Assembly: GCA_021847505.1 (NCBI GenBank)
Contig: JAJZEO010000016.1
Coordinates: 12,177-76,176 of the forward strand
Direction: 5' to 3'
Length of the DNA stretch: 64,000 nucleotides
Origin: a bacterium
GTDB lineage: Bacteria > Chlamydiota > Chlamydiia > Chlamydiales > 2-12-FULL-49-11
The notes below the pieces were generated by a model. The model had not been told where the DNA came from. It was given only the letters and a program-made list of their open reading frames with translations, and did not search any database. Below are positions 1-51,623 of this stretch, in pieces. Each line of letters starts with the position of its first letter. Position 1 is the first letter of the stretch. Made by a program: the position numbers and the translations under genes.

Positions 1-60
1 ATCAAAATGAAGATGCACTGACTTACCGATTTACTATTTAGTTTTTACTTAAAATTTATC

Positions 61-822
61 TCAATTTTGATAAGAACTTAGGTAGTTCCTATAAAGAATC
101 AAATAAGCATCCGTTACCACTGTATGGAATTGATGCGATTCAATCACATGACGATTAAAAGTCATGTCCTCACCTAACTTAAAATCAGGCCATTGAAATT
201 GGTCAAATACAGCCCTGGTGATGACAACAACACCATTATGCACCCCATTAGAAATGGAACCATATCTATCAAAAATTGTGGAATAGTCCGACACATAACA
301 ACTATTATGAACTATATCTTGGAGAGAATAATTAGGAAAATTTCCCTCATTCAAAAACAAACGATGGATAAGAAAATCCACCTTATAGTTCTCAAAAAGA
401 TATTTTATGAATTCCATTCTTTGTGGATGAGGAAGATCATCAGCGTCTTGGCAAAGAAGAATATCCCCGGTGCTAGCTCGACATGCAGCATTTCGATTTT
501 CTCCAGGGTATTCATTTTCATCTTCAACGATTTTAACCACAAAGGGGTATTGTTTTGTCAACACGCATTCAATCAAATCAGTAGGAATGTACTTTTTTTG
601 ACTTGTTGTCAGAGAGATAATAAACTCATCAGGTCGAACATGTTGCTGGGCATAGTAATCGATCAGGTCTGGTAATAGATAAAAATGCTTGTAATGACAG
701 GGAACTATTACACTTGTCCTCATGGGTATAGGTATCTCTCGCCGCCCCAATGCAGCAATGAATGGCTGGGTCAGAAATGTAATCACAAAAGCAAGAAAAC
801 TTATTCGAACAAATTTCATCAT
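61..822 (-). CDS. GT-A/GT2-like glycosyltransferase with N-terminal signal peptide or anchor
   Basis: 253-aa ORF. 'SVIVPCH' N-terminal strand and 'QDADDLPHP' DxD motif are typical of GT2-type enzymes. Hydrophobic N-terminus MMKFVRISFLAFVITFL. Confidence 0.6.
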   Translation of the reverse strand: MMKFVRISFLAFVITFLTQPFIAALGRREIPIPMRTSVIVPCHYKHFYLLPDLIDYYAQQHVRPDEFIISLTTSQKKYIPTDLIECVLTKQYPFVVKIVEDENEYPGENRNAACRASTGDILLCQDADDLPHPQRMEFIKYLFENYKVDFLIHRLFLNEGNFPNYSLQDIVHNSCYVSDYSTIFDRYGSISNGVHNGVVVITRAVFDQFQWPDFKLGEDMTFNRHVIESHQFHTVVTDAYLILYRNYLSSYQN

Positions 823-840
823 GGACCTTATGAGTGTTAT

Positions 841-923
841 TCATTTTTCATGCTATCCTATCAGAAAAAGAAAAAATGCGCCCATGTTTTAATTTACAAA
901 GAACGATGCTAGCATGAAAATGA
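841..923. repeat. Imperfect inverted repeat in a divergent promoter region
   Basis: Arm 'tcatttttcatgcta' (841-855) matches the reverse complement of 'tagcatgaaaatga' (910-923) with one extra T. The right arm overlaps the 10-bp palindrome 'atgctagcat'. It lies between divergent GT genes. Confidence 0.3.
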
Positions 924-1030
924 TGTCCCCAAATAAAATCTATTGATTTTTCCCTAAAAACGACTAATATCTTAAACATGCTTATTTGCACAAAACTATT
1001 CTTGATATATGTTAATTTAAGGTAATTTAG

Positions 1031-1924
1031 ATGACTTTAGTGCAGTATCCCTTTAAGGGAATTCTCGTTATTGCTCTTCTCTCAAGAACTCTCTTGCTTT
1101 TCGCGGAAGAACTCTATGATCAACATCAGAAAGTAGGTTGCGTTTATCCCTTTTTAACTCCTATTGCTAACTTTATAGAACCAATAGCAACTCATAGTGA
1201 TTTATCTGGGGTAGACGAAGTAGATTGTATTTATGTAATCAATCTTGATAGACGCACTGATCGATGGCAAAGAATGGAACAAATACTCAATCAAAACTTA
1301 TTACACGCCAATCGCGTCTCAGGTTTTGATGGAAGATACCGACTTACCGAATCTGACATGGATGCAATCGTTGGTCCCTACGGCAGAAGAAATATTAAAA
1401 AGGGGCAAGTAGGTATTGTTATAACCTATTTATCGATTTTAAAACACGCGCTCGATAACAACTTCAATTGCATTTGGGTTATGGAAGATGATGTCGAATT
1501 TCACTGTTCACCCGAATCTATCTCTAAATTTTTAGTCGCTTTATCTAATTTAGACCCAGATTGGGATCTGTTTTATACAAACATAAACCATCGTTATGAA
1601 AATAATTCTCATATTTCTGACTGTCACTGGATACGTCAAGATCAGCGTCCTGATGACCCAACAATTTTGCCAGATCCTGAGTACTTTCCTTCTTTGCAAT
1701 TAGCTAGAACTTGGTTTCATTTAGGTACATCTTCTAGCATTTTCTCCAAAAAAGGAGTTAAAAAAATCTTTGATTTTTTAACACATATATATTTTTGGTC
1801 TGGACTCGATATAGACATCCATCACCTGCCTAATATTCACGAATACATATCCACAATCGATCTTGTTGGCAATTGGCCATTTAGTGATTCCGATACCTGG
1901 CCTAAAGATGATATAGGCAGGTGA
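1031..1924 (+). CDS. GT25-family glycosyltransferase (LgtB/Lic2-like), signal-anchored
   Basis: 297 aa. 'IYVINLDRRTDRWQRM', 'VSGFDG' and 'IWVMEDDVEF' match the GT25 signature. Hydrophobic N-terminal segment GILVIALLSRTLLLF. Confidence 0.75.
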   Translation: MTLVQYPFKGILVIALLSRTLLLFAEELYDQHQKVGCVYPFLTPIANFIEPIATHSDLSGVDEVDCIYVINLDRRTDRWQRMEQILNQNLLHANRVSGFDGRYRLTESDMDAIVGPYGRRNIKKGQVGIVITYLSILKHALDNNFNCIWVMEDDVEFHCSPESISKFLVALSNLDPDWDLFYTNINHRYENNSHISDCHWIRQDQRPDDPTILPDPEYFPSLQLARTWFHLGTSSSIFSKKGVKKIFDFLTHIYFWSGLDIDIHHLPNIHEYISTIDLVGNWPFSDSDTWPKDDIGR

Positions 1925-2133
1925 GAACTTCTTTTTCAAGAAAAATCTTGCAGTTAACTACAAAGCGTGTTGATAACTCTTTCTAGTAATTCAACTCTTC
2001 TTCAGGTAACCAAAATTACTTTAGAGCTTGGACAGAAAAAGATTTCTGTAATTCATAATGATACAAGAAAAGGAGCTCTTTTTAACATCGATCAAACTGT
2101 AGACCTCTTTTATTGATGCACGTGACTTTGTAA

Positions 2134-2835
2134 TTACTTCAAAAGTTCCTTTCTCACAAACACAACATTTCCATGATGTGTATGACATGTTTGTTCCTTA
2201 CAAATCATTGAAAAACCCAATGATTCTAACCAGCTCTTATACTCTTCTAATAAAACAGTCCCTTTGTAAAACTCTAACTCTGAATATTCGGTATAAATGA
2301 CTTTTACAGTGGACAAAATTCGCGGAGAAGCTCTTAACATCTGGCACTCTGCCCCTTGCATGTCAAGATATAAAAAATCCACTTTTTTAACCCCTGTCAT
2401 ATTTGCCCAATCATCCAAAGTAATTATGGGGACCTTCACAACATCACAAAATTCAATTACATCCGACCACACAAATTGATCAGTGGGGGGTAAAAGAGAA
2501 CTTTGTGCATCAAAAGGATTCTCATCTCTAGGATTTTTTTTTGCACTTAAAAAAAAATCTGCAAAACCAGTCATCTCACCTAAAGCTATTTCAAAGGTTT
2601 GAACATTCTGCAAACCAGCGACTCTAGTGCGAAGCTGTTCATACACATCGTGCCTACATTCAAAAGCATAGATTTTACCCTGAGGCCAAAATTTAGCCAT
2701 TTTGTATGTGTCACTACCATCATGCGCACCACAATCAATAATGACAGCATCGGAAGGAACAAATCGACTCGCTACATCAAAAGCATCCCCATAACAACTC
2801 CCCCAGCAAAAAAGAACAAAAATCCAATTTCTCAT
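2134..2835 (-). CDS. FkbM-family SAM-dependent methyltransferase with signal peptide
   Basis: 233 aa. 'VIIDCGAHDGSDTYKMA' and 'DFLYLDMQGAE' match the Methyltransf_21/FkbM pattern. N-terminus MRNWIFVLFCWGSCYG. Confidence 0.7.
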   Translation of the reverse strand: MRNWIFVLFCWGSCYGDAFDVASRFVPSDAVIIDCGAHDGSDTYKMAKFWPQGKIYAFECRHDVYEQLRTRVAGLQNVQTFEIALGEMTGFADFFLSAKKNPRDENPFDAQSSLLPPTDQFVWSDVIEFCDVVKVPIITLDDWANMTGVKKVDFLYLDMQGAECQMLRASPRILSTVKVIYTEYSELEFYKGTVLLEEYKSWLESLGFSMICKEQTCHTHHGNVVFVRKELLK

Positions 2836-2879
2836 GCTAACCTCTTTTTTTAATCTATCCTACTTTAACAGCTATCTCT

Positions 2880-3785
2880 CTATTTTACTACAAAGCCTCT
2901 CTTGTACTTACTAATTTCTTTTTCCCAGTAGTTAATATATAATTTTTCATAATTATATTCCCTATCCTTAAATTCGTCCCATTTTTTTTCTAAATAACTC
3001 TCATCAATGATGTTCCAATCATCGACTATCAAAACAGGTAAGTCTTTAAATAAAGGATCCAGCGAGGAACTCTTTACGACTGGGACAGCCCCCATATACA
3101 ACGCCTCCCAGGTTCTATGAGTATCTATTCCATTTCCTCGTGGTGAAATCACAAACTTTGTTCTTGCCAAGTCGGTTAAATAGGAAAAAAAATCCTTAGA
3201 GCAAGAATAAACACCCCCATTTAACTGTCTGAATAAATTATACACATAAGACCGTTCGTCGGAATAAGTTCCAATGGAGAAATTCATATAAAGCAAATGT
3301 TCTTTGTTGCAATTCTGAAAAAGCGATCTTGCTTCTTTTAGCTTTTGAACATTTCCATGTGGCCAACATCTATTGGCTATTCCAATTGGAATACCTTTAA
3401 GCTTTGGATGGGTAAAGTTTGTTATGTTCTGTGCAAACCAAATTATCACATTGTCATTATCTAAATATCCCTTATATTTATCAGTCACTGGAAGATCTCC
3501 ATTATGTGTGATAAGAATGTAGGGCTGGTTAATTCTTGAATGATAAGAAGCAATAAAATCATCTAAAAGATCTATTTTTACAAAAATGATATCACCAAAT
3601 CTGACTTTAGTTGGCATTAGCGAACGACTTTCTTCATCAAAGACGAAATTTGCAAGCGCACGAAAAGAGTCTCCTGAAATATATGGGGCACTAGAACCTC
3701 TACCGCTCTCAGCATAAATATTTGCCAAAAAACAAACACTTATTATGAAAAAAAATATTTGTTGCTTCGAGCTTACTGATGCCAT
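2880..3785 (-). CDS. Exostosin (GT47)-like glycosyltransferase with signal peptide
   Basis: 301 aa. C-terminal 'KFVISPRGNGIDTHRTWEALYMGAVPVV' matches the exostosin-family motif (pRG..D..R..EAl..G.iPV). N-terminal hydrophobic segment IFFFIISVCFLANIYA. Confidence 0.55.
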   Translation of the reverse strand: MASVSSKQQIFFFIISVCFLANIYAESGRGSSAPYISGDSFRALANFVFDEESRSLMPTKVRFGDIIFVKIDLLDDFIASYHSRINQPYILITHNGDLPVTDKYKGYLDNDNVIIWFAQNITNFTHPKLKGIPIGIANRCWPHGNVQKLKEARSLFQNCNKEHLLYMNFSIGTYSDERSYVYNLFRQLNGGVYSCSKDFFSYLTDLARTKFVISPRGNGIDTHRTWEALYMGAVPVVKSSSLDPLFKDLPVLIVDDWNIIDESYLEKKWDEFKDREYNYEKLYINYWEKEISKYKRGFVVK

Positions 3786-3798
3786 TTATAGTCTCTTT

Positions 3799-4755
3799 TC
3801 ACCTTGCTAGCTTGTAAAAGTGATTCATAGTCTCTACATTCCCTTCTTCTGTGAACACCTCTGAATAGGGCAACTGGGGAAACATTTTTAGTCTATGAGC
3901 GACAATTCCCAATGCTACTTGTTCTGGCCTAGGAGAAAGAAAGCCCTTAAGCTTCCTCATTTTCTCGAAACTATTCTCAAAAAAGAGCCTAGTCCTTTCA
4001 TTTTCCATATTTAATCCAATCAAAGAGGCTTGTATCTGGGGAATTGATGCTCTTTCGTATTCCGTTAAAGAAAATGCCTCAACAACCATGGGGGAGTCAT
4101 GAGCTGCAACTTTTGTTACATGATCAATCAGAAAGTACCCATCTTCCTCCAAATAACGTAGAATCGCATTGAACTTTTCACCAGGAATCACCGCTGAATC
4201 AATCCATATAATATTTTTATATCCCAATCGGTAGGCCTCCCTGATCATACAGAGCTTAAAACTATAGGGAACATGAATAAGAGTTAGAGATCCCCCTTCA
4301 ACGTCAGGCCACCCACCTAGACGATAAAGAAAATGCCCTGTGAAATGGCATTTTTTCAGATATTTTTTAATTCTTGAAATTTTTTCCGTATAGGATGAAT
4401 TCCAACTTCCATAACAAACAACGCAACAATCTCTATAATTTGGATCATCGTTAAACAATATTTTATGCAGTTCAAGATCAATCTCACCGTTATTTCCCAA
4501 CTTTAGATTTCTTGCTCTAAAATCATAACGTAAACCATCAGCTTTAGATGGGATATACCATTCATAGTTAAGCCATTTTAAATAGTCCCTTCTTCCGTTT
4601 AGTAAATAATCTTGAATTAATAAAAAGTCAGCATCTTTAGGAGATTGAATATCAGACACTTTAGCATAGACAACGTCCCAATCATTGATTACGCGTTCAT
4701 TACTATAACAAACATAACTCGACATCAAAATAATTACAACAAAAATGGTTTTCAT
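3799..4755 (-). CDS. Secreted putative nucleotide-diphospho-sugar transferase (GT-A-like), uncharacterised
   Basis: 318 aa with signal peptide MKTIFVVIILMSSYVCYS. 'YSFKLCMIREAYRLGYKNIIWIDSAVIP' resembles the helix plus DxD strand of Nucleotid_trans-type GT-A enzymes. It lies inside the GT cluster. Confidence 0.35.
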   Translation of the reverse strand: MKTIFVVIILMSSYVCYSNERVINDWDVVYAKVSDIQSPKDADFLLIQDYLLNGRRDYLKWLNYEWYIPSKADGLRYDFRARNLKLGNNGEIDLELHKILFNDDPNYRDCCVVCYGSWNSSYTEKISRIKKYLKKCHFTGHFLYRLGGWPDVEGGSLTLIHVPYSFKLCMIREAYRLGYKNIIWIDSAVIPGEKFNAILRYLEEDGYFLIDHVTKVAAHDSPMVVEAFSLTEYERASIPQIQASLIGLNMENERTRLFFENSFEKMRKLKGFLSPRPEQVALGIVAHRLKMFPQLPYSEVFTEEGNVETMNHFYKLAR

Positions 4756-4770
4756 AATAAATCTGCTTCA

Positions 4771-5724
4771 TTAACTACTTGTATCGCTTGTTCGATTAAC
4801 TATTGTATGTGTAATATACGGCTGTGTAAGAACATATTGTCGAATATTGGGAACTAAATGGATGGAAACATCCACATGGGTCCATAGTTCCATTGACTGA
4901 TGAAATTTAATCAGTTTTTCAAGTCCTGATTTTGATATAATCAGTGAATAGGCTCCAATTCTTACATGAATCCTTTCAAAGTCATCTCCAATAAACTCTC
5001 TCTTAAAAAAATAATCCGCGTTAGCTTTTTCCACTTTTGGGTGATGCATTGGCGGTACATGAGTTTGTCTAAGAAATGTTCCATCCCAATTTCTCGTATC
5101 TGGATCTGTATATAAAATATCCCAATCAGGATCTAATTTACTAAGCTTTTCTAATAACTCTGGGATTTTTTCTAGAGGTTGAAAAATCTCAATATCATCT
5201 TCCATTATCCAAATTCTATCGTAACCTTTAAGTATAGCATCTCTCCAAATGGAAAAATGGCTAAGTGCGCAACCAATGGCTCCTAGTGTTAATTCAGTAT
5301 CATATTTTTTTTTCCCTGTTATCTTCCAAAGATCATTTCTTAAGAGCTCCTTACCATTTACAGCTTCTACGCGTGTTGCATTAAAATGATGCTTATGCAT
5401 TAATGCTTCTATTCTCTTCTTTCTCTCGGGCCTGGTAGCAAGATTAATGTAGTAAATTTGGTCAATCCCGCTCACCCCAGAAAATTTTGGCTCATCTTCT
5501 AGAGGAATATCGACAATATGTGCGTCAATCCTAGCATTATAAAACTTAATCTCCCTCTCTTCCGCATATAGAGTTAGACAAATTAAACATGCAGCTAAAG
5601 TTACGGCTCTAGTCATATTAGTTAACATAAAAATTGTCCTCGTAGAGAAAAAAAGTTGTTCCATATTTCCCCCAGGATAGTTAGGAAAATCACTATTAAA
5701 GTCAAATAGATACTCAGAGAACAA
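4771..5724 (-). CDS. GT25-family glycosyltransferase, signal-anchored
   Basis: 317 aa. 'IYYINLATRPERKKRIEALM', 'VEAVNGKEL', 'IWIMEDDIEI' and 'DPDWDILYTD' are GT25 signatures. Hydrophobic segment AVTLAACLICLTLYA. The true start may be an internal Met. Confidence 0.75.
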   Translation of the reverse strand: MFSEYLFDFNSDFPNYPGGNMEQLFFSTRTIFMLTNMTRAVTLAACLICLTLYAEEREIKFYNARIDAHIVDIPLEDEPKFSGVSGIDQIYYINLATRPERKKRIEALMHKHHFNATRVEAVNGKELLRNDLWKITGKKKYDTELTLGAIGCALSHFSIWRDAILKGYDRIWIMEDDIEIFQPLEKIPELLEKLSKLDPDWDILYTDPDTRNWDGTFLRQTHVPPMHHPKVEKANADYFFKREFIGDDFERIHVRIGAYSLIISKSGLEKLIKFHQSMELWTHVDVSIHLVPNIRQYVLTQPYITHTIVNRTSDTSS

Positions 5725-5741
5725 CCTAAATTCTTGTTAAT

Positions 5742-6620
5742 TTAAAATTGCTCATCAATAGGACAAATCGCACTGTAATCAACCTCTTCCCATTGTTGTA
5801 ATATTGAAGGCAAACTAGATTTAAAAGGGAGAGCACGAAAAGCATCTCTCCAAAGGGACATAGCATCATTAGGAGTTTCCTTAAATGCCTCGTGCAAATC
5901 TTTTCGAACTAGAAATAGATTAATAGTAAGACAAACAGGCTCATACCCCATTCTTTTCGCCACCTCTATGTATACTTCTAATGGCTGTTGCCGATTTGCT
6001 AATGCAATTTCTTCACAGACTTCTTGCTTAATTAAAGGGTGCCAAGCTAAATTCGCTTCAATCATTATTACTTTAGGCCTACATTTCAACCCCTTGAGAA
6101 TATAGTAATCAGCCCCATCAACATCAATAGACAAAAAATCGATTTCTCTTTCTGGGAAATACCGTTGATATATTTCATCGAATAGAAGACCATTTTTGTC
6201 ATCCGCCTTATAAGTAACCGCTAACTTCAATGGCATTACCCCAGAATCTCTGGGATAGTTTAAACTAAGTTCATTGTACAAATCTGATGATGGCTCAATC
6301 ATAACTCCTTCCCAGCCACTTTCCCATAAACTTCTGGTATTAGAAATCTCAATCCCATCCATAGCTCCAAATTCTACAAAAAATCCTTTCTCAATTTGAA
6401 GTCTACGAAAAATCTCTTTAATAATTCCTTCTTCGCCATATTGAGAATATTTGCATTCTGCAAATCGATTCAAACTATTAGAAGAAAGTCTCTCAAAATT
6501 TTTTCTTAATTCAGCTTCTGTTGAATCCTTCCATAAATTTACATGTGCAAATACAGGAACACTCAATGGGAGGAAGAGCACTAGTAAATAATTTCTCACA
6601 ACACCATAATATCGATACAA
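5742..6620 (-). CDS. FkbM-like methyltransferase with signal peptide
   Basis: 292 aa. 'YSQYGEEGIIKEIF', 'FFVEFGAMDGIEISNTRSL' and 'DFLSIDVDGADYYIL' fit the family. Paralogue of 13216..14007. Confidence 0.6.
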   Translation of the reverse strand: MYRYYGVVRNYLLVLFLPLSVPVFAHVNLWKDSTEAELRKNFERLSSNSLNRFAECKYSQYGEEGIIKEIFRRLQIEKGFFVEFGAMDGIEISNTRSLWESGWEGVMIEPSSDLYNELSLNYPRDSGVMPLKLAVTYKADDKNGLLFDEIYQRYFPEREIDFLSIDVDGADYYILKGLKCRPKVIMIEANLAWHPLIKQEVCEEIALANRQQPLEVYIEVAKRMGYEPVCLTINLFLVRKDLHEAFKETPNDAMSLWRDAFRALPFKSSLPSILQQWEEVDYSAICPIDEQF

Positions 6621-6650
6621 AACAAACCTCCAATTTATGCAAACAGTTTC

Positions 6651-7517
6651 CTAATTTTCGATTATCCAAGATTTAGGGATCAAATCCTCCGTATTGTGCA
6701 TATCATAGGCTTCCCCAAACCACTTCCTTGGCGCAACTACGAGTTTATTTGGATTGCGATTGAGATAGGCCGCCCACCAGGAATAAGTTGAATTTGCAAT
6801 GATATTACTTTTACAAAGACTCATAAGATACAAATCATGGTAACGATTTTCACCTTCAATAAAAATAATATTTTCTTCTATTCCCGAGAATATGGTTTTG
6901 CACCATTCTATGTTGTTCGAGAAGACAACGAATAAGGACTCTTTAGGAAAATGCTTCATTGCGTTTATATAATATTCTCGTGTGCAATTTGGGTGATAGA
7001 TCTGTTCAGTATCTCGCCTATAGTCACGACAGTGTATGGAAACAGTGTTTGAGTTTTCCAAAATAGGCCCATATTTACTAGTCAGGTAAGAAATAATTTC
7101 CTCTGAAGGGGCAAATATATTTAATACTTTATCCTTGCAATGAATAAAATACTTTTCTGATTGAAAATACCCCCTAAGTAAAACGTTGCGGCTAGGGGGA
7201 ACTTTGCAATAGTGAAAGTATGGTTCATTATATATGCTTCTAATTCTTACGTTGGGGGCATGCCCATTCAGTCTAAAAAAAATTGCTTGAAAATTTTCAG
7301 GAATATTCCATCTTTCATCTGTCAGTAAAGCAGGAAAACAGGGCACTAAACCATTTTCCTCCGAAAACCCAATTGTTGCGGCAATGATGAACATTTGATT
7401 TCCTAGTTCCCCCTGCAACTCGCCAACAACATAATCATCTGCAAATAAAACAAATAGACTAAGTAAGGTTCCTAAAAAAACAAATCCTACTAAACTTTTC
7501 CCTTTTAAAAATTTCAT
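6651..7517 (-). CDS. GT11 alpha-1,2-fucosyltransferase-like, signal-anchored
   Basis: 288 aa. 'GELGNQMFIIAA', 'VSIHCRDYRRD' and 'NSTYSWWAAYLN' correspond to GT11 motifs I-III. Its start overlaps the stop of the downstream GT10 gene by 4 nt (ATGA). Confidence 0.75.
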   Translation of the reverse strand: MKFLKGKSLVGFVFLGTLLSLFVLFADDYVVGELQGELGNQMFIIAATIGFSEENGLVPCFPALLTDERWNIPENFQAIFFRLNGHAPNVRIRSIYNEPYFHYCKVPPSRNVLLRGYFQSEKYFIHCKDKVLNIFAPSEEIISYLTSKYGPILENSNTVSIHCRDYRRDTEQIYHPNCTREYYINAMKHFPKESLFVVFSNNIEWCKTIFSGIEENIIFIEGENRYHDLYLMSLCKSNIIANSTYSWWAAYLNRNPNKLVVAPRKWFGEAYDMHNTEDLIPKSWIIEN

Positions 7518-8524
7518 TCGAAAATTGCCTTTAAGTACGCTTTCACTAATTGTTTCGTTCTAAATCGATCTCCTTGAACGGAATTGACATATTTTTGAAT
7601 GTTATTGAGATAATTTTGCCATACTTTTTCCTCCATTGATTCAATATAGGAATGCAATTTTGAATATGTGTTAAACTCCCTGGCATCGATGAAACACCCA
7701 GCAGGAATATAGTCTGCTATATTTGTGGCTCCAAGGTAAATAGGCACTGAACCCACCATTAACGGATCAAATATTTTTTCAGTGATATAACCATCATTAT
7801 TCAAATAATTTTCGAACGCATAACAAAATCGGTAATTCTTCAACACTGCAAGCTTGTCTTCAGGCGAACAAACATAGCAGGGGTGATCCGATTTTGAAAA
7901 TCCAAATAGATCAAAGCTTAAATGAGAATTTTTTTCATAAAAATTTAGCAGCCTAATTCGCTCTGAATAAAGTTCATTTGGGTGAGAAGATGTTTTATTC
8001 CCAATTATTGTACACACGAGCTTTCGTTCTGAAAAAGAAGGCAAATTCAAAACCATACCATGGTTTACCGGATAGCCATACTTAATATAACGGCTTCCAT
8101 CAACCAAATTATCATTCCAGGTAATGATCCGATCAAATAAAGAATGCACTTTTTTTTGATGAACTTCAGGACAAACTGTAGGGGGCTCCCAAATCGTTAA
8201 AATTTTCTTGCATTTAAGTTTCTTTAATCTTGCTAAATCACTATTATTTGGAACATTGTTAAAAACAACCACATCACCATTTCCAAATTTATCGCTTTCA
8301 ACTGCAATAATATCCCATCCTCGCTCTTTTAAGCGATAACGAAGCTGTGTGTAGGGAGAACTGCTAAATACATCTTGGGGCTCGATTGGATCCTTAAAGA
8401 CCTCATCTGCAATCCCCGAACAATTCATAATAAATTCAACCAAATTGCAATGAGCAGAAATTGAAAGTTGAAAGAAACTCACGATAAGCAGATTCCAAAA
8501 GGAAATAACAAACCAATTTGCCAT
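7514..8524 (-). CDS. GT10 alpha-1,3/4-fucosyltransferase-like, signal-anchored
   Basis: 336 aa. 'YRFCYAFENYLNNDGYITEKIFDPLMVGSVPIYLG' matches the GT10 alpha-1,3-FucT motif (FENS...Y.TEK). N-terminus MANWFVISFWNLLIVSFF. Confidence 0.8.
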   Translation of the reverse strand: MANWFVISFWNLLIVSFFQLSISAHCNLVEFIMNCSGIADEVFKDPIEPQDVFSSSPYTQLRYRLKERGWDIIAVESDKFGNGDVVVFNNVPNNSDLARLKKLKCKKILTIWEPPTVCPEVHQKKVHSLFDRIITWNDNLVDGSRYIKYGYPVNHGMVLNLPSFSERKLVCTIIGNKTSSHPNELYSERIRLLNFYEKNSHLSFDLFGFSKSDHPCYVCSPEDKLAVLKNYRFCYAFENYLNNDGYITEKIFDPLMVGSVPIYLGATNIADYIPAGCFIDAREFNTYSKLHSYIESMEEKVWQNYLNNIQKYVNSVQGDRFRTKQLVKAYLKAIFE

Positions 8525-8641
8525 AAATTTTCACTATATAAACCTTCAATTGAACATTCTTTCATAAAATCAAAAAATAGTCCACTAATGTCTCTTTGTA
8601 GACCAACGTTAGCGATCATGTTGCATTTGGGACAAAGCTAT

Positions 8642-8670
8642 TTGAATATGCCGAAAATACAGATTAAATA
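8642..8670 (+). promoter_or_regulatory. Candidate sigma70-like promoter for the + strand GT operon
   Basis: TTGAAT (8642-8647), a 17-nt spacer, then TAAATA (8665-8670). It lies upstream of the ORF that starts at 8685 (or at the internal Met at 8751). Sequence match only. Confidence 0.25.
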
Positions 8671-8684
8671 TCGTTGAATGTTTA

Positions 8685-9551: not shown

Positions 9552-9591
9552 TTTTAAGGAACCCCCTTAAAATATTAGTGTTATTTTTCTT

Positions 9592-10689
9592 ATGAGATCG
9601 TTTGGCTATATTTGCTTTTTTTTGTCAAATTTAGAGAGTTGTTTCTTATTTTTTTGTCCGTTTTTTTTGTTTCATTTTACTCCCCTCCACAGCAAAACCA
9701 TTTACATATTACCCTTTCCCAGTATAAACTTTGAGACACTTTTTTTTGGGGATTACAAATATAATGACCCGAACAGCCAGGCCAGAGATGAAACTAGCAA
9801 GACTTGGATTTATTTACGAAAGGCCCTCGAAAAAAATAATTTTGCAGTCAAAGCCCCTTGTGAGGAAAGTCCAGGAGATGATGTAACCTATCTGATTTCT
9901 CTTTCAAACATTGATCAGGAAAGCTTAAAGAACTTTTCTCACATTCCAAAAAGTCATCGCTTTCTTTTAGTCTTTGAGCCACCCGTAGTCTCCCTTGAAC
10001 TACATAATCCCTCTCTCGCTGAATATTTCGGGAAAATTTTCACTTTGTTCGACGATGTAATTGATAATGAAACATATTTTAAAATGTTCTTCCCGCAACC
10101 AAGACTAAAGATGATCCAACCAATTGTTGATTGGAGTGAAAAGAAGTTTGCAACACTAATTGCAAATGATAATACCTCGGACCATCCTGATGAACTTTAT
10201 ACAGCTCGAAGAAAGACGATAGATTTTTTTGAACGGGGAAAAATCAAGGGTTTTGATTTATACGGAAATTCACCAAGCTGGGTAAGATATAAAAATTGGA
10301 AGGGCGCAATAAAAAACAAGTGGCCAATTCTTAGAAATTACAAATTTTGCTTTAGCTATGAAAATACCAGGGGCAGGTCAGGTTATATCACAGAAAAAAT
10401 ATTCGATTGTTTTGTCTCTGGGTGTGTCCCTGTATACCTTGGAGCGGATAGTGTAACCCAATACATCCCCAAAAATTGTTTTATTTCCGCAAATGATTTT
10501 TCAAATGAAAAGGAATTACACCGATTTTTAAAAACTATGGATAGAAACACTTATGACAATTATATTCGATCAATCGATGATTTTTTAAAATCAGACCAGG
10601 CCAAACTATTCTCAATTCAACACTTTATAGAAATTATCTTACCCCATGTGGGGGGTGGAGAAGTTGAAAGTGTCCCAATAGATTCCTAA
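9592..10689 (+). CDS. GT10 alpha-1,3/4-fucosyltransferase-like, signal-anchored
   Basis: 365 aa. 'YKFCFSYENTRGRSGYITEKIFDCFVSGCVPVYLG' is the GT10 motif. Paralogue of 7514..8524. Confidence 0.8.
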   Translation: MRSFGYICFFLSNLESCFLFFCPFFLFHFTPLHSKTIYILPFPSINFETLFFGDYKYNDPNSQARDETSKTWIYLRKALEKNNFAVKAPCEESPGDDVTYLISLSNIDQESLKNFSHIPKSHRFLLVFEPPVVSLELHNPSLAEYFGKIFTLFDDVIDNETYFKMFFPQPRLKMIQPIVDWSEKKFATLIANDNTSDHPDELYTARRKTIDFFERGKIKGFDLYGNSPSWVRYKNWKGAIKNKWPILRNYKFCFSYENTRGRSGYITEKIFDCFVSGCVPVYLGADSVTQYIPKNCFISANDFSNEKELHRFLKTMDRNTYDNYIRSIDDFLKSDQAKLFSIQHFIEIILPHVGGGEVESVPIDS

Positions 10690-10696
10690 GAGGAGA

Positions 10697-11692
10697 TTGC
10701 TTTCTTTGAGATTAATTCTAGTTTTTCTTTTTTGTGTGCCTCTTTCAAATCTTCAATGTCTTGAGAAAGCGCCCCACTACATTACTTATTCTTTTAGCGG
10801 TGGACGATTCGGAGATCAATTAGTTTCTTATCTACATGCCAAGTGGATTTCATATAAATTTGGCATTCCATTGTTATTAAAAGAGTTTAGCTATTCTAGT
10901 CAATTATCCTTATCCCAACTAGAGCTTCCATTTTCTTCTGATATAGCAGATCTTGAGGTTATTTACTTACCCCGCCTAGACTCTTTTGCAATCGACACTT
11001 ATATTAACGAATTTTCAAAAAGAGGTCCAGCCATTTTAGAAATTCCTTATTTCCCTCTTTCAGAATTTGAACTCACCAGTCCCCAGAACTACCCTTCATT
11101 CGTTGTTGATTGGAATGACCCAAATTTTAAAAAGGAGCTCCAAAAAAATATTTGTCTGAAAGCTGATCTTGATTTAGTGAAAATTCCTAAACAAAAACTC
11201 TCAGTTGCTATTCACGTCCGGCTTGGAAAAGAATTTGATGGGCCAAATATGGAGAAATATTATCCATTGAAGTTTCCCCCTTTAACTTACTACTTTAAAG
11301 CTTTAAACCACCTTTGTAAATTATTAGATCAAAGGGAACTCTATGTACACCTTTTTTCCGATGACTCTACTACTAACGAACTCATGGCTATTTTCAGAGA
11401 AAAATTCCCCAGAGAAAAATTCCCCATAGAATTTGGGACAAGAGTAGAAAACAATAGCCATTCAAAAAATGTACTCGAAGATTTTTTTTCTCTACAAAAA
11501 TTTGACTGTATAATTCACAGTGAATCAAATTTCTCATTTGTGGCTTCCCTTATTGGGGATTATTGCATAAAAATTCGCCCCAAAGAATTTCACTTTCAAC
11601 AAGGCCAATTAATCATTGATGAAATGCAAATTGATATTGACCACATTTTATTGGAAAAGCGACTTAGTGATCTTTGCAAATCATCGGATTAA
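10697..11692 (+). CDS. Divergent GT11-like / fucosyltransferase-superfamily protein with signal peptide
   Basis: 331 aa. 'SGGRFGDQLVSYLHAKW', 'VAIHVRLGKEFD' and 'HSESNFSFVASLIG' loosely parallel GT11 motifs I-III. The start is a TTG (10697, or in-frame 10706) after an AGGAG. Confidence 0.45.
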   Translation: MLSLRLILVFLFCVPLSNLQCLEKAPHYITYSFSGGRFGDQLVSYLHAKWISYKFGIPLLLKEFSYSSQLSLSQLELPFSSDIADLEVIYLPRLDSFAIDTYINEFSKRGPAILEIPYFPLSEFELTSPQNYPSFVVDWNDPNFKKELQKNICLKADLDLVKIPKQKLSVAIHVRLGKEFDGPNMEKYYPLKFPPLTYYFKALNHLCKLLDQRELYVHLFSDDSTTNELMAIFREKFPREKFPIEFGTRVENNSHSKNVLEDFFSLQKFDCIIHSESNFSFVASLIGDYCIKIRPKEFHFQQGQLIIDEMQIDIDHILLEKRLSDLCKSSD

Positions 11693-11818
11693 AAATGCTA
11701 AAAAGTTTTATTCTTTATTTTTTATTGCCTTATATAGCTGAATTCCCTAAGGAACGATAGTTTGTACCCACGCGAAAATTCCCGCGATTAAAATATTTGA
11801 CCCCAATCTCTTTCCTAA

Positions 11819-12100
11819 ACAAACCCATTAGTTTGGTTTGTCGAAGATGATGTTATCTTCATCTCCTCGGCAGACAAGCTCTATGAATTGGTGGAGAATT
11901 TATCTAAAATCGACCTCGATTGGGATATTCTTTATACAGATCCCAGCACAATTGATTGGGATGGCTTCTCTATAGCAAAGAAAATACTCTTCCCACCCCT
12001 CCATTTGTTGATATTATCGGTAATAACTACTTTCATAGAAGAAAAGTCATTGATGGCACCTTTAAGTCACCCTATCTGGACAAGTGTCGATAATTCACTC
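11819..12100 (+). pseudogene. Truncated and frameshifted GT25 glycosyltransferase remnant
   Basis: The in-frame translation 'VWFVEDDVIFI..LVENLSKIDLDWDILYTDPSTIDWDG' aligns with 'IWIMEDDIEIF..LEKLSKLDPDWDILYTDPDTRNWDG' of ORF 4771..5724. The N-terminal ~170 aa are absent (stop at 11816-11818). Similarity continues in another frame ('NNYFHRRKVIDGTF') after about 12010. Confidence 0.7.
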
Positions 12101-12107
12101 CACTATA

Positions 12108-13208
12108 TTACCACTGTCCTAAATAAATAGGCGAAAGGTGCCCCAAAGTATAAGGCCCTGAAATGCGAGAACTAAATGCTGCTAAATTCTTAGAATGTAC
12201 ATGTAGATTATTAATTCGGTATCCTTTTCCATTATAAATTATGTAAGGAATCCTGCGGTTCTGATCATCTAGGCGCCACTCATATTTAAATTTGCTAGCA
12301 TCAAAGATACAAGCTTCATTGATAAAGCCAGCAGGTGGCCCTCTATGCGTCCCAACTATATATTGACCTAATGCTGCAGCATCAAAGACTGATTGAAAAA
12401 GATCAAAATTACGGCAAAAATCGTATTTATCTGCAGCTTTGTGATGGTGATAACTTTCTAATTCATGCTGATTTTCAACATATTCCGATACAAGTATTGG
12501 CAGATGGTCTATAGCTTTTTGACCTTTAGCCCTCTTGAAAAAAGAGGGGAGCTGCATATCACTTCTATCTAAATGAGCGCAAGCCTCCATAAATTGTGCA
12601 TAGCAAGCCATAGCTTTTAAGTTGTGTATATACAAAAAACCGCATACACAACGTTCATCATTATCAAAAGTAGCTCCAATTCCTTTATATAACGAAGTAA
12701 ATAAGGGGAGGAGTTCTTCCAAATTTACATAAAGCAAATTATCATGTTCCATGTGAAATATGTTCTCTCGCGGCTGCCACTCTAAAAAATCATATAAATA
12801 CAAAAAACGCTCACTATAAACATTCCAATCATGAATATATAGGTGTTCTTTCCAGTTTAGGTGGGTAGGTGTCATAGGGATGTGTTCTAAGGCAACAAGA
12901 TTTACATTAATTGAGGTGTCGATAGGTGAAAATTTTTCGATGAGAGCTTGGTTGGTAAGGAGGATAATTTCACAATTTGGATTAAATAACCTAGCTTGCG
13001 ATAAGGCAATTTCAACATGTGGAGGTAAACTTTCCCCAATATGTACAAAAATAATGGAGTAATTGCTTGAAGCATATAATGTATTGAATAGAAAACATAA
13101 TACCCACCCAAGGCGAAAAGTCTTTGATTGTAAATCTAGAATGATTTTTTTCAAGCTAGTTCTAGCCTCCAATTTGATATGTGAATACAACATAGGATCT
13201 TTGCCCAA
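12108..13208 (-). CDS. Putative GT32-like glycosyltransferase, signal-anchored
   Basis: 366 aa. 'IIFVHIGESLPPHVEIALSQARLFNPNCEIILL' and 'SERFLYLYDFLEW..IFHMEHDNLLY' loosely resemble Gly_transf_sug/GT32 motifs. Hydrophobic segment LGWVLCFLFNTLYA. Weak assignment. Confidence 0.35.
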   Translation of the reverse strand: MGKDPMLYSHIKLEARTSLKKIILDLQSKTFRLGWVLCFLFNTLYASSNYSIIFVHIGESLPPHVEIALSQARLFNPNCEIILLTNQALIEKFSPIDTSINVNLVALEHIPMTPTHLNWKEHLYIHDWNVYSERFLYLYDFLEWQPRENIFHMEHDNLLYVNLEELLPLFTSLYKGIGATFDNDERCVCGFLYIHNLKAMACYAQFMEACAHLDRSDMQLPSFFKRAKGQKAIDHLPILVSEYVENQHELESYHHHKAADKYDFCRNFDLFQSVFDAAALGQYIVGTHRGPPAGFINEACIFDASKFKYEWRLDDQNRRIPYIIYNGKGYRINNLHVHSKNLAAFSSRISGPYTLGHLSPIYLGQW

Positions 13209-13215
13209 TTCATTC

Positions 13216-14007
13216 TTACTGATTTAGCAATTTCCCTGCGCTCGTATAAATTCTATCTTTTGTATCTTTATGATGTCCGCCATTTTTTTCAGCCCCATGC
13301 CCACCATAGCGTGGTTTTTTATACAAAGCGTCAACATTTCCCATGTTCTTGAACTTTAAGCCCAGGCTATCAATTAGGTCATTTCTCAAAAAAAACAAAT
13401 TTACACCATTATTTTCCATATACACTAAGGTATAGCCCTTCATTTTTCCTAGTTTGTAAAGCGCTAATACTGATGCTCCATAATAATTTCCTCCATCCCA
13501 ACGACCATTTGGATCATAGAAAACGACAAGATCCTCTTGAGGATAATGTGTTGCATTACATTCAATACAAACTACTTTTGGACGATATTTTTCAGGAAAC
13601 GCTCGCCAAACATAAAAATCATTGAAATCTATATCTATAGATACAAAATCTATATCTTCTGGAACATTATATTTAGCAAGAAGGTCCCCAATGTTTTCTG
13701 CTGTTATAAATTCTTTATACAAACCAATTCCCACATTTTCATGATCTCCATCCCATTGAACACCAGACCATTTTTTATCTCTTAAATTGGCTACGTTACT
13801 AGTAGTTATTCCATCAAAGCCACCAAATTCTAAGTAAAAATGTGAAGTAGGAGGAATAAGGTTGAATAATTCCTCTATTACCCCATCTTCTCCTTGTTGG
13901 CTATAAATTGACCGTTCATAATTGCCTAAATCAATTTCTTCCGCGGAATACACAGCGATGCTGATAAAATTAAAAATTAAGAGACAATATTTCAGTCCTT
14001 TTTCCAT
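13216..14007 (-). CDS. FkbM-like methyltransferase with signal peptide
   Basis: 263 aa. 'YSQQGEDGVIEELF', 'FYLEFGGFDGITTSNVANL' and 'DFVSIDIDFNDFYV' fit the family. Paralogue of 5742..6620. Overlaps the upstream gene by 16 nt. Confidence 0.6.
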   Translation of the reverse strand: MEKGLKYCLLIFNFISIAVYSAEEIDLGNYERSIYSQQGEDGVIEELFNLIPPTSHFYLEFGGFDGITTSNVANLRDKKWSGVQWDGDHENVGIGLYKEFITAENIGDLLAKYNVPEDIDFVSIDIDFNDFYVWRAFPEKYRPKVVCIECNATHYPQEDLVVFYDPNGRWDGGNYYGASVLALYKLGKMKGYTLVYMENNGVNLFFLRNDLIDSLGLKFKNMGNVDALYKKPRYGGHGAEKNGGHHKDTKDRIYTSAGKLLNQ

Positions 14008-15011
14008 GTAATATCCTCCATATGTAGAGACAATGTATTTTTGTTAACTTTAGCAACCCATACTTCATGATTATCTAATCCATATACAATATAGATATCC
14101 TCTCCTCTCATTAGAAGCCCCCCTGGATAAACAACTCTTGATGGCCCCCATCCCCACTTAGCGACATATATAGGCCATCTATAAAAATTGTCTCCTATAA
14201 GAGGAATTTTACTTATTTTTTTTGGCAAAAATGGGTAATGTGCAGAAAATATGAGTGCCCCCATAAAAAATTGTCGAATCTCTCCAAGCCAGGTGTTAGA
14301 ATGGAAAAAGGTTAGATATTCATCATCATTGATTAGTATAGCAGGAGTCCCTCCGCGCAGACCATTAGAGTCCGCCCATTCCCAATCAATTCTTCGGTGA
14401 TCTGTCGACATTGTTACTGTGCTATTTGTTCCTAAAAGAATTTGTAAAACACGGAAGGGCTCTGTATTATAGATACAGCAAAGTTCCCCTAAATGCTGAA
14501 ATGGAGACCAATTTTTTTCTACACGCCCCTCTCCTCGGACGAAATCATATTTGAAAAAGGGTTCTGGTTTAATGTAAAAATGTTCTCCATCAGAAGTAAT
14601 TTCACCCACATGCATTGTTCGTGGTCCACAACCCGATGGCGTTCTATCGTCATTAAAAAAAGCATACAATTTATCTCCAACAACTATCAATCTTGCATCT
14701 TCTGCTCTAGATGGAACCTGGGGATCATTAAATCTTGTTTCTAATAACTGAGGAGTTCCAATTGGATTAAAATTATCATCCAATTTAACCAGACCAATGT
14801 AACTTTCTTCCCCATTATGCTCTCGAAAACTTAATAGTAAATTTCCACTCCAATAGGCAATTGAAGGGTTAAGCGCATTTCGATAATGCGGGATTTTAAT
14901 TCTCTTTTCTTCTGTTACTAGGCGGGGCAATTCATCAATTGGTGTTGCATAACTAACATTCATCCTCAACAACAGCCCAAACAAAAGAATCTGTTTCACC
15001 TTTAATTTCAT
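13992..15011 (-). CDS. Secreted beta-propeller glycosidase/phosphorylase-like protein (DUF377/GH130-like?), uncertain
   Basis: 339 aa with signal peptide MKLKVKQILLFGLLLRMNVSYA. 'NPSIAYWSGNLLLSFRE', 'AEDARLI' and 'EKNWSPF' recur in the way beta-propeller blade motifs do. The family call is tentative. Confidence 0.3.
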   Translation of the reverse strand: MKLKVKQILLFGLLLRMNVSYATPIDELPRLVTEEKRIKIPHYRNALNPSIAYWSGNLLLSFREHNGEESYIGLVKLDDNFNPIGTPQLLETRFNDPQVPSRAEDARLIVVGDKLYAFFNDDRTPSGCGPRTMHVGEITSDGEHFYIKPEPFFKYDFVRGEGRVEKNWSPFQHLGELCCIYNTEPFRVLQILLGTNSTVTMSTDHRRIDWEWADSNGLRGGTPAILINDDEYLTFFHSNTWLGEIRQFFMGALIFSAHYPFLPKKISKIPLIGDNFYRWPIYVAKWGWGPSRVVYPGGLLMRGEDIYIVYGLDNHEVWVAKVNKNTLSLHMEDITWKKD

Positions 15012-15060
15012 TTTGTCCCACTTTTTTCTTTCTACAATCAGAACGGTTGAATTTTCTAAA

Positions 15061-15879
15061 TTACAGGGCTTTTTCTAAATAAAAGACAGGTTGAATACAA
15101 TAACCAAGAGGTGCATCGAAAAGACTTTCTGAAAAACCATAAGATTTTCCTACCTTCCAACCCTCAAATAACATCGGAAGTCTAATAGGTCCATAAATTC
15201 GATGAGCATTCCAGGCTACCGCATCTTTACCAACTGGAAAAGCAATTAACATAAATCCCTCGTCCTTTAAGAAAGATTTTTTAGCTAACTTCATAAAATC
15301 AAAGTCCCCATTGGGATTTAAGGGGTCACCATATCTGCCCAAACCATCGTGTTCAATACTAGAGATAGATAAAATGACGTCAAATTGTATGGGCTGTTTT
15401 ACATATTCCCCGAAAGTCAAAATCTCTAACCTTGGATCATCGGAGACAATTCTATTGTATTCTATAGTAAAGGGGATACCACCGAATGCAAGCACAATAG
15501 CCTCGTACCAAGGTGTGGTAGAACCTATTATCCCAACAGTTTTACCTTCGATAGAGTGTTCTCTAATTGCCGCATAAAGCCAGCTGTCTGTTTCACCATA
15601 ATAGTTTTGTTGGCCTTGTAAAACCTTGATAATATAACTATCTATAAGTTCCCTAGAGTACATTAAGGGTTCAGTAGACGAATAGGTTCCATCCATGTAA
15701 TAATCAATAACTGGGATTGCACAATTTAAAGTGTATTCATTAAAGAGGTCACTCGGGATCTCCCTTGGGGGGGCAGAATATAAATTACAGAAAAAGCAGC
15801 CTTGAAAAATGAAAAATGAACTAACCAACTTCAAAACTATTTGGGTCATAAAATATTCCTTAATAGAAATGCTTAACAC
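15061..15879 (-). CDS. DUF268-type SAM-dependent methyltransferase-like protein, signal-anchored
   Basis: 272 aa. 'GKTVGIIGSTTPWYEAIVLAFGG', 'TIEYNRI' and 'SSIEHDGLGRYGDPLNPNGDFDFM' match my recollection of the DUF268 family (nematodes plus scattered bacteria). Hydrophobic segment LVSSFFIFQGCFFCNLYSA. Confidence 0.55.
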   Translation of the reverse strand: MLSISIKEYFMTQIVLKLVSSFFIFQGCFFCNLYSAPPREIPSDLFNEYTLNCAIPVIDYYMDGTYSSTEPLMYSRELIDSYIIKVLQGQQNYYGETDSWLYAAIREHSIEGKTVGIIGSTTPWYEAIVLAFGGIPFTIEYNRIVSDDPRLEILTFGEYVKQPIQFDVILSISSIEHDGLGRYGDPLNPNGDFDFMKLAKKSFLKDEGFMLIAFPVGKDAVAWNAHRIYGPIRLPMLFEGWKVGKSYGFSESLFDAPLGYCIQPVFYLEKAL

Positions 15880-15934
15880 TATTGGATCTAGTGTATTTTC
15901 GTCTATAAATTTATTTGTTTTTCAAACCTCAACC

Positions 15935-28060: not shown

Positions 28061-28090
28061 TCCCCTTTGATTCATCAAAGGGGACTTTTT
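28061..28090 (+). terminator. Rho-independent terminator
   Basis: Perfect 10-bp stem tcccctttga/tcaaagggga with loop ttca, followed by cttttt. It lies between convergent genes. Confidence 0.8.
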
Positions 28091-35144: not shown

Positions 35145-35208
35145 TAACTATGCCTTTTGTTTCTCTAATAATTATGATGGGAATTAAATGAAAGGTTTAA
35201 TTGAAAAT

Positions 35209-51611: not shown

Positions 51612-51623
51612 TTGGTGACACAT

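Follow-up and report, generated by a model that had tools for sequence, protein, structure and literature searches.

This work concerns the first 15,934 nucleotides of a 64,000-nucleotide stretch of chlamydial DNA (assembly GCA_021847505.1, contig JAJZEO010000016.1, positions 12,177 to 76,176; hereafter the window), where genes of glycan-modifying enzymes crowd into a low-G+C block next to uvrB. The most unusual feature of this block, missed by an earlier reading made from the letters of the DNA (the sequence-only reading), is that all its enzymes begin with a leader, predicted to be of the Sec type (i.e., a signal peptide or signal anchor), by which the proteins would be exported. The interpretation we prefer, with middling confidence, is that of an old, fast-turning-over locus of exported glycan enzymes resembling those of eukaryotes and giant viruses, and probably acting in the periplasm or the host vacuole. 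It is in the universal leaders, and in the links to giant viruses and eukaryotes, that the main interest of the locus lies, rather than in horizontal acquisition as such.

Leaders on the enzymes of the uvrB-topA locus

Positions 1 to 15,934 hold 16 intact open reading frames (ORFs) of 233-366 amino acids, laid end to end between 61 and 15879 on both strands. Each of the 16 proteins has a single N-terminal hydrophobic segment and no further transmembrane segment, the usual layout being positive residues (Lys/Arg), then 12-20 uncharged hydrophobic residues and then an acidic one. Under a strict rule (at least 10 uncharged residues of high hydropathy, beginning within the first 40 residues) such a leader is found in 15 of the 17 proteins of the locus, the seventeenth gene lying beyond the left edge of the window, as against 12 of the 39 other window genes (Fisher p = 1e-4); in the two locus proteins that fail the rule the stretch is broken by a single Arg. 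Asp or Glu directly follows the uncharged stretch in 11 of the 15 that pass. With positive residues before the stretch and acidic ones after it, the positive-inside rule predicts an N-in/C-out topology and therefore a catalytic domain outside the cytoplasm. Since bacterial glycosyltransferases that depend on nucleotide sugars are cytoplasmic as a rule, it is unusual to find an export leader conserved in a cluster of 17 enzymes and in hundreds of their chlamydial homologues.

The leader is a feature of whole families. It is present in 61 of 64 homologues of the fucosyltransferase-like protein (ORF 10697-11692), 59 of 62 homologues of the GT8-like protein (ORF 12108-13208), all 22 close homologues of an orphan family (ORF 3799-4755) and 37 of 42 homologues of the GH130-like protein (ORF 13992-15011), and across homologues of 25-60% identity it is kept as a property, not as a sequence. 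In alignments the conserved domain starts within a few residues of it, with nearly no linker. The GT8-like homologues of giant viruses, however, start at the first conserved strand, preceded by 1-3 residues or by MKIV(L/F)V. A075L of PBCV-1 is cytosolic too. A leaderless catalytic module in viruses thus has a leader-bearing counterpart in chlamydiae.

The main rival of this interpretation is a conventional assembly at the cytoplasmic face, be it of a lipooligosaccharide (LOS) outer core, an O-antigen-like chain or another surface polysaccharide, where the N-terminal helices would be inner-membrane tethers and the genes for donors and export would lie elsewhere. We consider it possible rather than probable. 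Enzymes of GT25, GT10, GT11 and GT2 build LOS or lipopolysaccharide outer cores and Lewis-type O-chains in Haemophilus, Neisseria and Helicobacter (textbook knowledge), nucleotide sugars and S-adenosylmethionine (SAM) are cytoplasmic, low G+C between housekeeping flanks is what O-antigen and capsule loci look like, and leaderless sugar-nucleotide and glycosyltransferase-like genes adjoin topA or uvrB on the metagenome contigs L243 and L003; all of this favors conventional assembly. Mere tethers, on the other hand, fit poorly with the charge pattern around the stretch, with the near absence of a linker before the first conserved strand, with the lack of a leader in the cytosolic viral homologues, and with the same leader being found on the GH130-like enzyme and on all four proteins of methyltransferase type. 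Nor does the full 17.5 kb of the locus encode any enzyme of nucleotide-sugar synthesis or any priming transferase, flippase, polymerase, ligase or ABC transporter (wzx, wzy, waaL, wzm/wzt). Only transferases, methyltransferases and the GH130-like gene are found, which is not the content of an O-antigen, LOS or capsule locus, nor the complete toolkit that the sequence-only reading took it for.

Gene content and affinities of the enzymes

The genes are listed below, with coordinates of the window unless a contig is named. Every intact enzyme, the fusion at the left border included, carries the leader, whose residues are given for some. Pfam calls compare the whole-protein score with the gathering threshold, which is about 23-24 bits for PF00535, PF01755, PF00852 and PF01531.

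L081 19165 onward: topA-SWIB (topoisomerase I-SWIB fusion), left core flank
L081 17530-19149 (contig L081/L088), left of window position 1: GT2-GT25 fusion, 539 amino acids
61-822, minus strand: GT2 (a); PF00535 42.4 bits (cut-off 23.3); leader residues 7-26
1031-1924, plus strand: GT25 (a); PF01755 40.7 bits (cut-off 24); hydrophobic N-terminus (H15 2.43); 30% identical to the GT25 of 4771-5724
2134-2835, minus strand: FkbM-type SAM methyltransferase 1; PF05050 63.2 bits (cut-off 22.7); TIGR01444 82.3 bits; leader residues 3-16
2880-3785, minus strand: GT114 (A075L-like, inverting GT-B), probable xylosyltransferase acting on fucose
3799-4755, minus strand: orphan glycan-enzyme family (probable GT-A, W-x-D-S/T motif)
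4771-5724, minus strand: GT25 (b); PF01755 87.3 bits; true start probably Met33 (about 5628), the public gene call having 285 amino acids
5742-6620, minus strand: FkbM-type methyltransferase 2; PF05050 37.8 bits (cut-off 22.7); leader residues 10-30
6651-7517, minus strand: GT11 (alpha-1,2-fucosyltransferase family); PF01531 97.9 bits; leader residues 8-26, then DD
7514-8524, minus strand: GT10 (alpha-1,3/4-fucosyltransferase family) (a); PF00852 63.5 bits
8685-9551, plus strand: GT2 (b); PF00535 73.1 bits; 50% identical to the GT2 domain of the left-hand GT2-GT25 fusion
9592-10689, plus strand: GT10 fucosyltransferase family (b); PF00852 62.6 bits; 31% identical to the GT10 of 7514-8524
10697-11692, plus strand: fucosyltransferase-superfamily member (FUT8/POFUT1/NodZ-like fold) without Pfam match
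About 11830-12110, plus strand: GT25 remnant (pseudogene fragment); its translation has the GT25 core VWFVEDD...LDWDILYTDP and matches the GT25 of 4771-5724
12108-13208, minus strand: GT-A protein with predicted GT8-like (retaining) fold, without Pfam match
13216-14007, minus strand: divergent FkbM-like methyltransferase 3; leader residues 7-22, then EE
13992-15011, minus strand: GH130/DUF377-like five-bladed-propeller enzyme (glycoside phosphorylase or hydrolase type)
15061-15879, minus strand: DUF268, putative SAM methyltransferase (nematode Golgi-cluster family); PF03269 97.3 bits (cut-off 25)
15935-17935, minus strand: uvrB, right-hand core flank, with UvrB_inter, Helicase_C, UvrB and UVR domains; G+C 0.50-0.55

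The 17 genes thus comprise 12 glycosyltransferases dependent on nucleotide sugars (counting the orphan as a probable one), four proteins of SAM-methyltransferase type and one GH130-like enzyme. At least four are of fucosyltransferase type (two GT10, one GT11 and one FUT8/NodZ-like), GT25 domains occur in three genes, and paralogues within the locus are 29-50% identical. The ORF layout and the placement by Pfam, fold and homology bear out the claim of the sequence-only reading that 16 intact ORFs and one pseudogene between 61 and 15879 are nearly all glycan enzymes, and its two GT2, two GT25, two GT10, GT11 and DUF268 genes all score above the Pfam gathering threshold. Both GT10 proteins contain the block FxxxxENxxxxGYITEK. 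The other family names had to be changed or qualified, as follows.

The protein earlier taken for an exostosin of GT47 (ORF 2880-3785) is better placed in GT114. The GT47 exostosin model PF03016 scores only 22.8 bits (cut-off 33.4), and was rejected, whilst the structures of the chlorovirus PBCV-1 protein A075L (8q8i, 8avq and 8asa) match with an E value of 1.4e-35 over residues 88-295 (208 residues). The Asp aligned to the catalytic Asp73 of A075L is kept, and the PRGNGIDTHR block (with Asn202, Gly203 and Arg208) is identical. In the core of the chlorovirus capsid N-glycan, A075L, a cytosolic beta-xylosyltransferase, attaches xylose to fucose; it is the founder of GT114, and was itself reclassified out of GT47 (PMC11571054).

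ORF 10697-11692, called GT11-like before, has no match among the Pfam models. Its AlphaFold2 model (predicted local distance difference test, pLDDT, of 93) finds FUT8, POFUT1, AtFUT1 or NodZ as all of its top 50 fold matches in PDB (TM-scores of about 0.42-0.51), and its family has an invariant R37/G39/D40 and H173-x-R175-x-G177, with D181 nearly invariant. The model and these motifs, taken as donor-binding, place it in the fucosyltransferase superfamily (a GT-B variant of the GT11/GT23/GT37/GT65 type), though in no particular CAZy family, so that the earlier call holds for the superfamily, the fold being of FUT8/POFUT1/NodZ type. For ORF 12108-13208, which lacks a Pfam match too, the earlier assignment to GT32 finds no specific support. 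The AlphaFold2 model (pLDDT 92) resembles glycogenin, XXYLT1, SetA and LARGE1 with E values of 1e-6 to 1e-5, although with query-normalised TM-scores of only 0.31-0.40, and the H152-x-E154-x-D156 (HxExD) motif is invariant in the family; a GT-A enzyme with GT8-like fold is what the model predicts.

Two further calls stand in part. The supposed beta-propeller glycosidase (ORF 13992-15011) relates to GH130/DUF377 through its relatives, 27 of 42 homologues (26-45% identity) carrying PF04041, whilst the protein itself scores 12.1 bits with that model (cut-off 26; E 0.089). Out of three FkbM methyltransferases two exceed the PF05050 cut-off; the third (ORF 13216-14007) has no Pfam match and belongs there by paralogy alone, being 29% identical to the FkbM protein of 5742-6620 (E 9e-19). 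A scan of NCBIfam gave nothing beyond FkbM, PDB sequence searches with the GT11, GH130-like and DUF268 proteins gave no matches, and a BFVD fold search returned merely generic viral GT-A matches.

The orphan (ORF 3799-4755) has no Pfam match at E values up to 5. A glycan role is suggested for it by the domain fusions of its relatives, and by nothing else: in these the domain is fused to GT2, GT10, GT25, GT90 and methyltransferase domains. Its earlier placement in Nucleotid_trans (PF03407) was rejected, as an hhalign comparison with the PF03407 protein of the window itself gave only E 0.07 and Pfam gave no match, and profile-profile comparison of the orphan and GT8-like families found no link. 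The PF03407 protein in question (43799-44470, minus strand; 26 bits) is a Nucleotid_trans-like putative glycosyltransferase of 223 amino acids, located in a region of normal G+C and leaderless, unlike the enzymes of the island.

Several of these families reach into giant viruses and eukaryotes. The GT8-like family has relatives at 106 loci of IMG/VR, many from metagenome-assembled genomes (MAGs) of giant viruses and leaderless, and the orphan family has 69 relatives there, giant-virus MAGs included. No viral relatives were found for the fucosyltransferase-like family, and scans of viral sequences with single proteins gave no close relatives of DUF268 and only three of GT25. On a 145-kb IMG/VR contig (L095, 4983-6809) the GT8-like gene is present twice in tandem, both times without a leader, beside another putative transferase, so that this family duplicates locally in viruses too. 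Among solved structures, the GT10 of 7514-8524 matches human FUT9 at 2e-12 as against 2e-6 for the H. pylori FucT, and the GT25 domains are nearer to human COLGALT1 than to bacterial GT25, the protein of 4771-5724 matching COLGALT1 best, at 2e-12 as against 1e-5 for a bacterial GT25. In C. elegans, DUF268 genes lie within glyco-gene clusters, and 9 of 11 have a signal peptide (PMC7614267, PMC3534327). Judging from sequence similarity, the mix of at least four fucosyltransferase-type enzymes, GT25 enzymes of galactosyltransferase type, a homologue of a fucose-directed xylosyltransferase and four methyltransferases suggests a fucose-rich, xylosylated and O-methylated glycan, similar to those of chloroviruses and invertebrates.

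Composition, borders and the same slot in other chlamydiae

Over the first 16 kb of the window all 1-kb bins have a G+C of 0.33-0.38, whereas the next two (uvrB) have 0.55 and 0.50 and the remainder 0.39-0.49, which agrees with the abrupt change at about 15.9 kb reported earlier. G+C at third codon positions (GC3) averages 0.30 in the island genes (range 0.24-0.35) and 0.45 in the 39 other window genes (0.32-0.65), and a symmetrised Karlin dinucleotide distance (x1000) of 95 separates the island from the remaining sequence, as against 18-55 for 16-kb chunks of the core. Given the ORF layout and the G+C, GC3 and dinucleotide data, the block, its coordinates and its compositional step are real. 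The flanking uvrB (15935-17935) and topA-SWIB (L081 19165-20867) have a G+C of 50-57%, with a GC3 of 0.65 for uvrB, compared to some 44% in the rest of the window; the step at both borders is therefore exaggerated.

The left border, correctly placed outside the window by the sequence-only reading, is seen in a metagenome contig from ENA (L081/L088) that is 99.98% identical to the window and extends beyond its left edge, where one further gene, the GT2-GT25 fusion, is followed by the stop codon of topA-SWIB. The full low-G+C block is thus 17.5 kb long with 17 genes and an abrupt G+C step at each end, its borders lying 55 bp from the stop codon of uvrB and 15 bp from that of topA, between two convergent flanks. 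The best UvrB matches among the GTDB representative genomes, which do not include this genome, are MAGs of Chlamydiia and Parachlamydiaceae (64-68% identity), and these matches, together with the topA-SWIB fusion, support a chlamydia-like host, as was read before. The other public contigs of this locus (L081, L082, L088-L091) are 99.98-100% identical to the window, with no strain polymorphism among them to analyse. Public assemblies break inside the island: a 111-kb MAG contig (L089; GCA_027365995.1, DAHXLL010000032.1) stops 1.1 kb beyond the GH130-like gene, and another contig, of 16 kb, has nothing but island sequence. Such breaks suggest coverage or binning problems in the low-G+C block.

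Is such a block the product of a single recent import from a foreign AT-rich donor, as was the view of the sequence-only reading? The composition (G+C of 35% against about 44-55%, and the GC3 and dinucleotide values above), the abrupt borders on both sides, the three families shared with AT-rich giant viruses and the tendency of assemblies to break within the block would all fit. Even so, we find this improbable. Of the features of a genomic island the locus has the atypical composition, but neither the mobility hallmarks (no tRNA, integrase, transposase or flanking direct repeats at the locus, the closest tRNA being one tRNA-Pro 24 kb away, and the inverted repeats being merely the paralogous GT2 genes) nor an absence from relatives. 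The tightly packed ORFs form five or more transcription units, with both strands in use, the divergence of the paralogues implies long residence, and the nearest database homologues are at most 60% identical. What remains of the proposed horizontal acquisition is the deviant composition and the eukaryote and giant-virus affinities (GT114/A075L, GT8-like and orphan families); a discrete recent import is not what the data favor. Phase variation was considered and rejected too, as the glycosyltransferase genes have only A/T runs of 9 and one G7, as expected of AT-rich sequence.

The slot itself speaks for age. A synteny comparison at uvrB, proposed with the sequence-only reading, shows that in a relative with a 68% identical UvrB (L001) the order is uvrB, a different glycan cluster of 8.3 kb, and topA-SWIB, i.e., the same slot is occupied. 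That cluster encodes a GNAT protein, three CAP59/GT2-like transferases, a methyltransferase, a GT114-like, a fucosyltransferase-like and one unknown gene, and a GT2; three of these are homologous to island genes (25-43% identity), and seven of the nine proteins carry a leader, the GNAT protein not being one of them. Its G+C is lowered only slightly. In other slots of other chlamydial genomes, namely between rsmB and rplC and between dnaE and hisS, the same leader-bearing families form smaller clusters of depressed G+C, with six consecutive leader-bearing homologues on one contig (L087) and six of nine on another (L085). Low G+C therefore seems to be typical of loci of this class and not to signal a fresh import.

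Such gene density had been called unexpected for Chlamydiae, a judgment supported neither by the count of homologues nor by the small clusters in other slots. The families without a Pfam model have at least 522 (fucosyltransferase-like), at least 257 (GT8-like) and 474 representative (orphan) homologues, and each taxon-named match is chlamydial (Chlamydiia, Chlamydiales, Simkaniaceae, Rhabdochlamydiaceae, Waddliaceae or Parachlamydiaceae). Full-text searching turned up no account of chlamydial clusters like these, and the main chlamydial pangenome paper has no glycosyl-, glycan or lipopolysaccharide terms. A metagenome scan made with a TopA alignment, whose patterns are too universal, gave three chlamydial TopA loci, one with topA-adjacent sugar-nucleotide genes and two with none. 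Beside uvrB or topA on two other chlamydial MAG contigs we also see two large leaderless ORFs of 440 and 594 amino acids (L003, 2181-5291) and, on L243 (6953-9179), leaderless epimerase-like and nucleotidyltransferase-like ORFs, so called from N-terminal motifs only; these hint that the uvrB/topA neighbourhood draws conventional glycan genes as well.

Proposed site of action and known systems compared

If the preferred interpretation (i.e., an old locus of exported enzymes) is correct, the leaders would carry the enzymes across the inner membrane, and the enzymes would act in the periplasm and/or the lumen of the host-derived vacuole, in a Golgi-like topology. On glycoconjugates of the bacterial surface or of the vacuole they may there assemble or reshape an O-methylated glycan that contains fucose, galactose and xylose. 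The argument that they leave the cytoplasm comes from the conservation of the leaders, and, being of types that depend on nucleotide sugars or SAM, they would then need their donors outside the cytoplasm. Nucleotide sugars and SAM may be supplied by the host. Feeding by the host is conceivable for a vacuolar bacterium because of the lumenal glycogen synthesis of C. trachomatis, whose secreted glycogen synthase (GlgA) uses, in the inclusion lumen, uridine diphosphate (UDP)-glucose imported by the host transporter SLC35D2 (PMC4829429). The slot would be old, its content changing by duplication, decay and exchange with a gene pool common to other chlamydiae, giant viruses and eukaryotes; in the locus itself, the 29-50% identity of paralogues argues for long residence.

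It is tempting to go further, and to propose that environmental chlamydiae run a Golgi-like extracytoplasmic pathway of Sec-exported Leloir glycosyltransferases, methyltransferases and a GH130-type enzyme, of families shared with eukaryotes and giant viruses, which would work in the periplasm or the inclusion lumen on host-derived guanosine diphosphate (GDP)-fucose, UDP-galactose, UDP-xylose and SAM and yield fucosylated, xylosylated and O-methylated glycans like those of chloroviruses or eukaryotes, with the uvrB-topA locus as the largest known example of an undescribed, phylum-wide class of clusters. This we put forward tentatively, as a speculation more doubtful than the interpretation it extends.

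Several points weigh against export and extracytoplasmic action. The leader calls follow heuristic hydropathy and charge rules, and some hydrophobic stretches, of 19-29 residues, could be uncleaved anchors. We know of no pool of GDP-fucose, UDP-galactose, UDP-xylose or SAM in any bacterial periplasm. The sole precedent, that of C. trachomatis, depends on type III secretion instead of Sec leaders, and is limited to UDP-glucose. The analysis covers 64 kb of the genome, and genes for donor synthesis, flippase or ligase could sit elsewhere; the comparison of slots, finally, draws on one informative relative (L001).

Another explanation, overlapping with the preferred one, would have the proteins act as secreted effectors, adding sugars or methyl groups to molecules of the host (the vacuole membrane or glycoconjugates of the secretory pathway) for mimicry or control of trafficking. 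The leaders on all proteins, the affinities with eukaryotic FUT9, COLGALT1, GT8/XXYLT1/LARGE and DUF268 proteins, the similarity in fold between the GT8-like protein and the Legionella effector SetA, and Inc-like genes in the window, suggestive of a vacuolar lifestyle, agree with it. Yet the glycosylating effectors known from bacteria have type III or IV signals in place of Sec leaders, a series of seventeen stepwise enzymes points to one complex glycan instead of single-hit modification of the host, and no acceptor is identifiable; we give this explanation little weight.

The Inc-like genes are four consecutive ORFs on the plus strand (50315-53973; 150, 252, 294 and 473 amino acids) with closely paired hydrophobic segments at 95/115, 100/119, 228/247 and 271/311, a bilobed pattern that resembles that of chlamydial inclusion-membrane (Inc) proteins; they match no confident Pfam family, the fourth (52552-53973) alone giving a sub-threshold Abhydrolase_6. 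Three other features of the window stand apart from the locus, all on the minus strand. Two tandem paralogous major outer-membrane porins of Legionella_OMP type (PF05150, 66 and 100 bits), both with signal peptides, occupy 34008-36412. A signal-peptide protein at 28089-28664 has a borderline match to the lipid A 3-O-deacylase PagL (22.6 bits, cut-off 23), and may be relevant to lipid A remodelling. At 54071-61246 a RecD-like helicase (AAA_30/UvrD_C_2; the only gene scanned there) is followed by two ORFs of 1036 and 938 amino acids, with strong positive GC skew, probably a RecBCD/AddAB-type operon.

Should export prove true, an intracellular bacterium would be assembling complex glycans in a host-fed compartment, and the single precedent of C. 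trachomatis glycogen would be extended to a multi-sugar pathway; the locus would then provide a concrete set of genes for studying the surface or vacuolar glycans of chlamydia-like organisms. Should the leaders be simple tethers, there would still be a large and unusually fucosyltransferase-rich variable locus for surface glycans in a phylum thought to be glycan-poor. With export real, the locus would in addition document families common to chlamydiae, giant viruses and eukaryotes; GT114, a family with unstudied bacterial members, is one of them.

Four known systems invite comparison. The loci for O-antigen, LOS outer core and capsule (e.g., enterobacterial galF-gnd, the lgt-lic2 GT25 genes of Haemophilus and Neisseria, and futA/B/C of Helicobacter pylori) are similarly dense clusters of GT2, GT10, GT11 and GT25, with a G+C below that of the genome, a fixed slot whose content varies between relatives, internal duplications and a pseudogene. 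Unlike them, the chlamydial locus has no genes for nucleotide-sugar synthesis, priming, Wzx/Wzy, ABC transporter or ligase and no phase-variation repeats, and a Sec-type leader is found on every one of its enzymes; to our knowledge, the enzymes of those systems have none. The sets of giant viruses (A075L/A064R/A111-114R of the PBCV-1 capsid N-glycan and the fibril clusters of Megavirinae) share the GT114, GT8-like, orphan and GT25 families, the combination of fucose- and xylose-type transferases with sugar methyltransferases, and the AT-richness. They differ in that the viral enzymes are cytosolic and leaderless, identities are only 25-40%, the fucosyltransferase-like family lacks viral relatives, and the chlamydial genes lie between core genes of a bacterial chromosome.

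The enzymes of the eukaryotic endoplasmic reticulum and Golgi (FUT9, FUT8/POFUT1, COLGALT1, GT8 of the XXYLT1/LARGE1/glycogenin type and nematode DUF268) are alike in families or folds, in the clustering of methyltransferases seen in C. elegans, and in having an N-terminal signal or anchor that puts a nucleotide-sugar-dependent domain outside the cytoplasm, as is predicted for the chlamydial locus. The latter is, however, bacterial, its enzymes have no stem region, no nucleotide-sugar transporter is encoded in it, and the periplasm or vacuole would take the place of the Golgi. With the lumenal glycogen synthesis of C. trachomatis (PMC4829429) it would share a chlamydial Leloir-type glycosyltransferase working outside the bacterium, in the vacuole, on a nucleotide sugar supplied by the host. 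That system, though, uses type III secretion and makes one homopolymer from one donor, whilst the chlamydial locus described here is one of many enzymes and, by its families, of many sugars.

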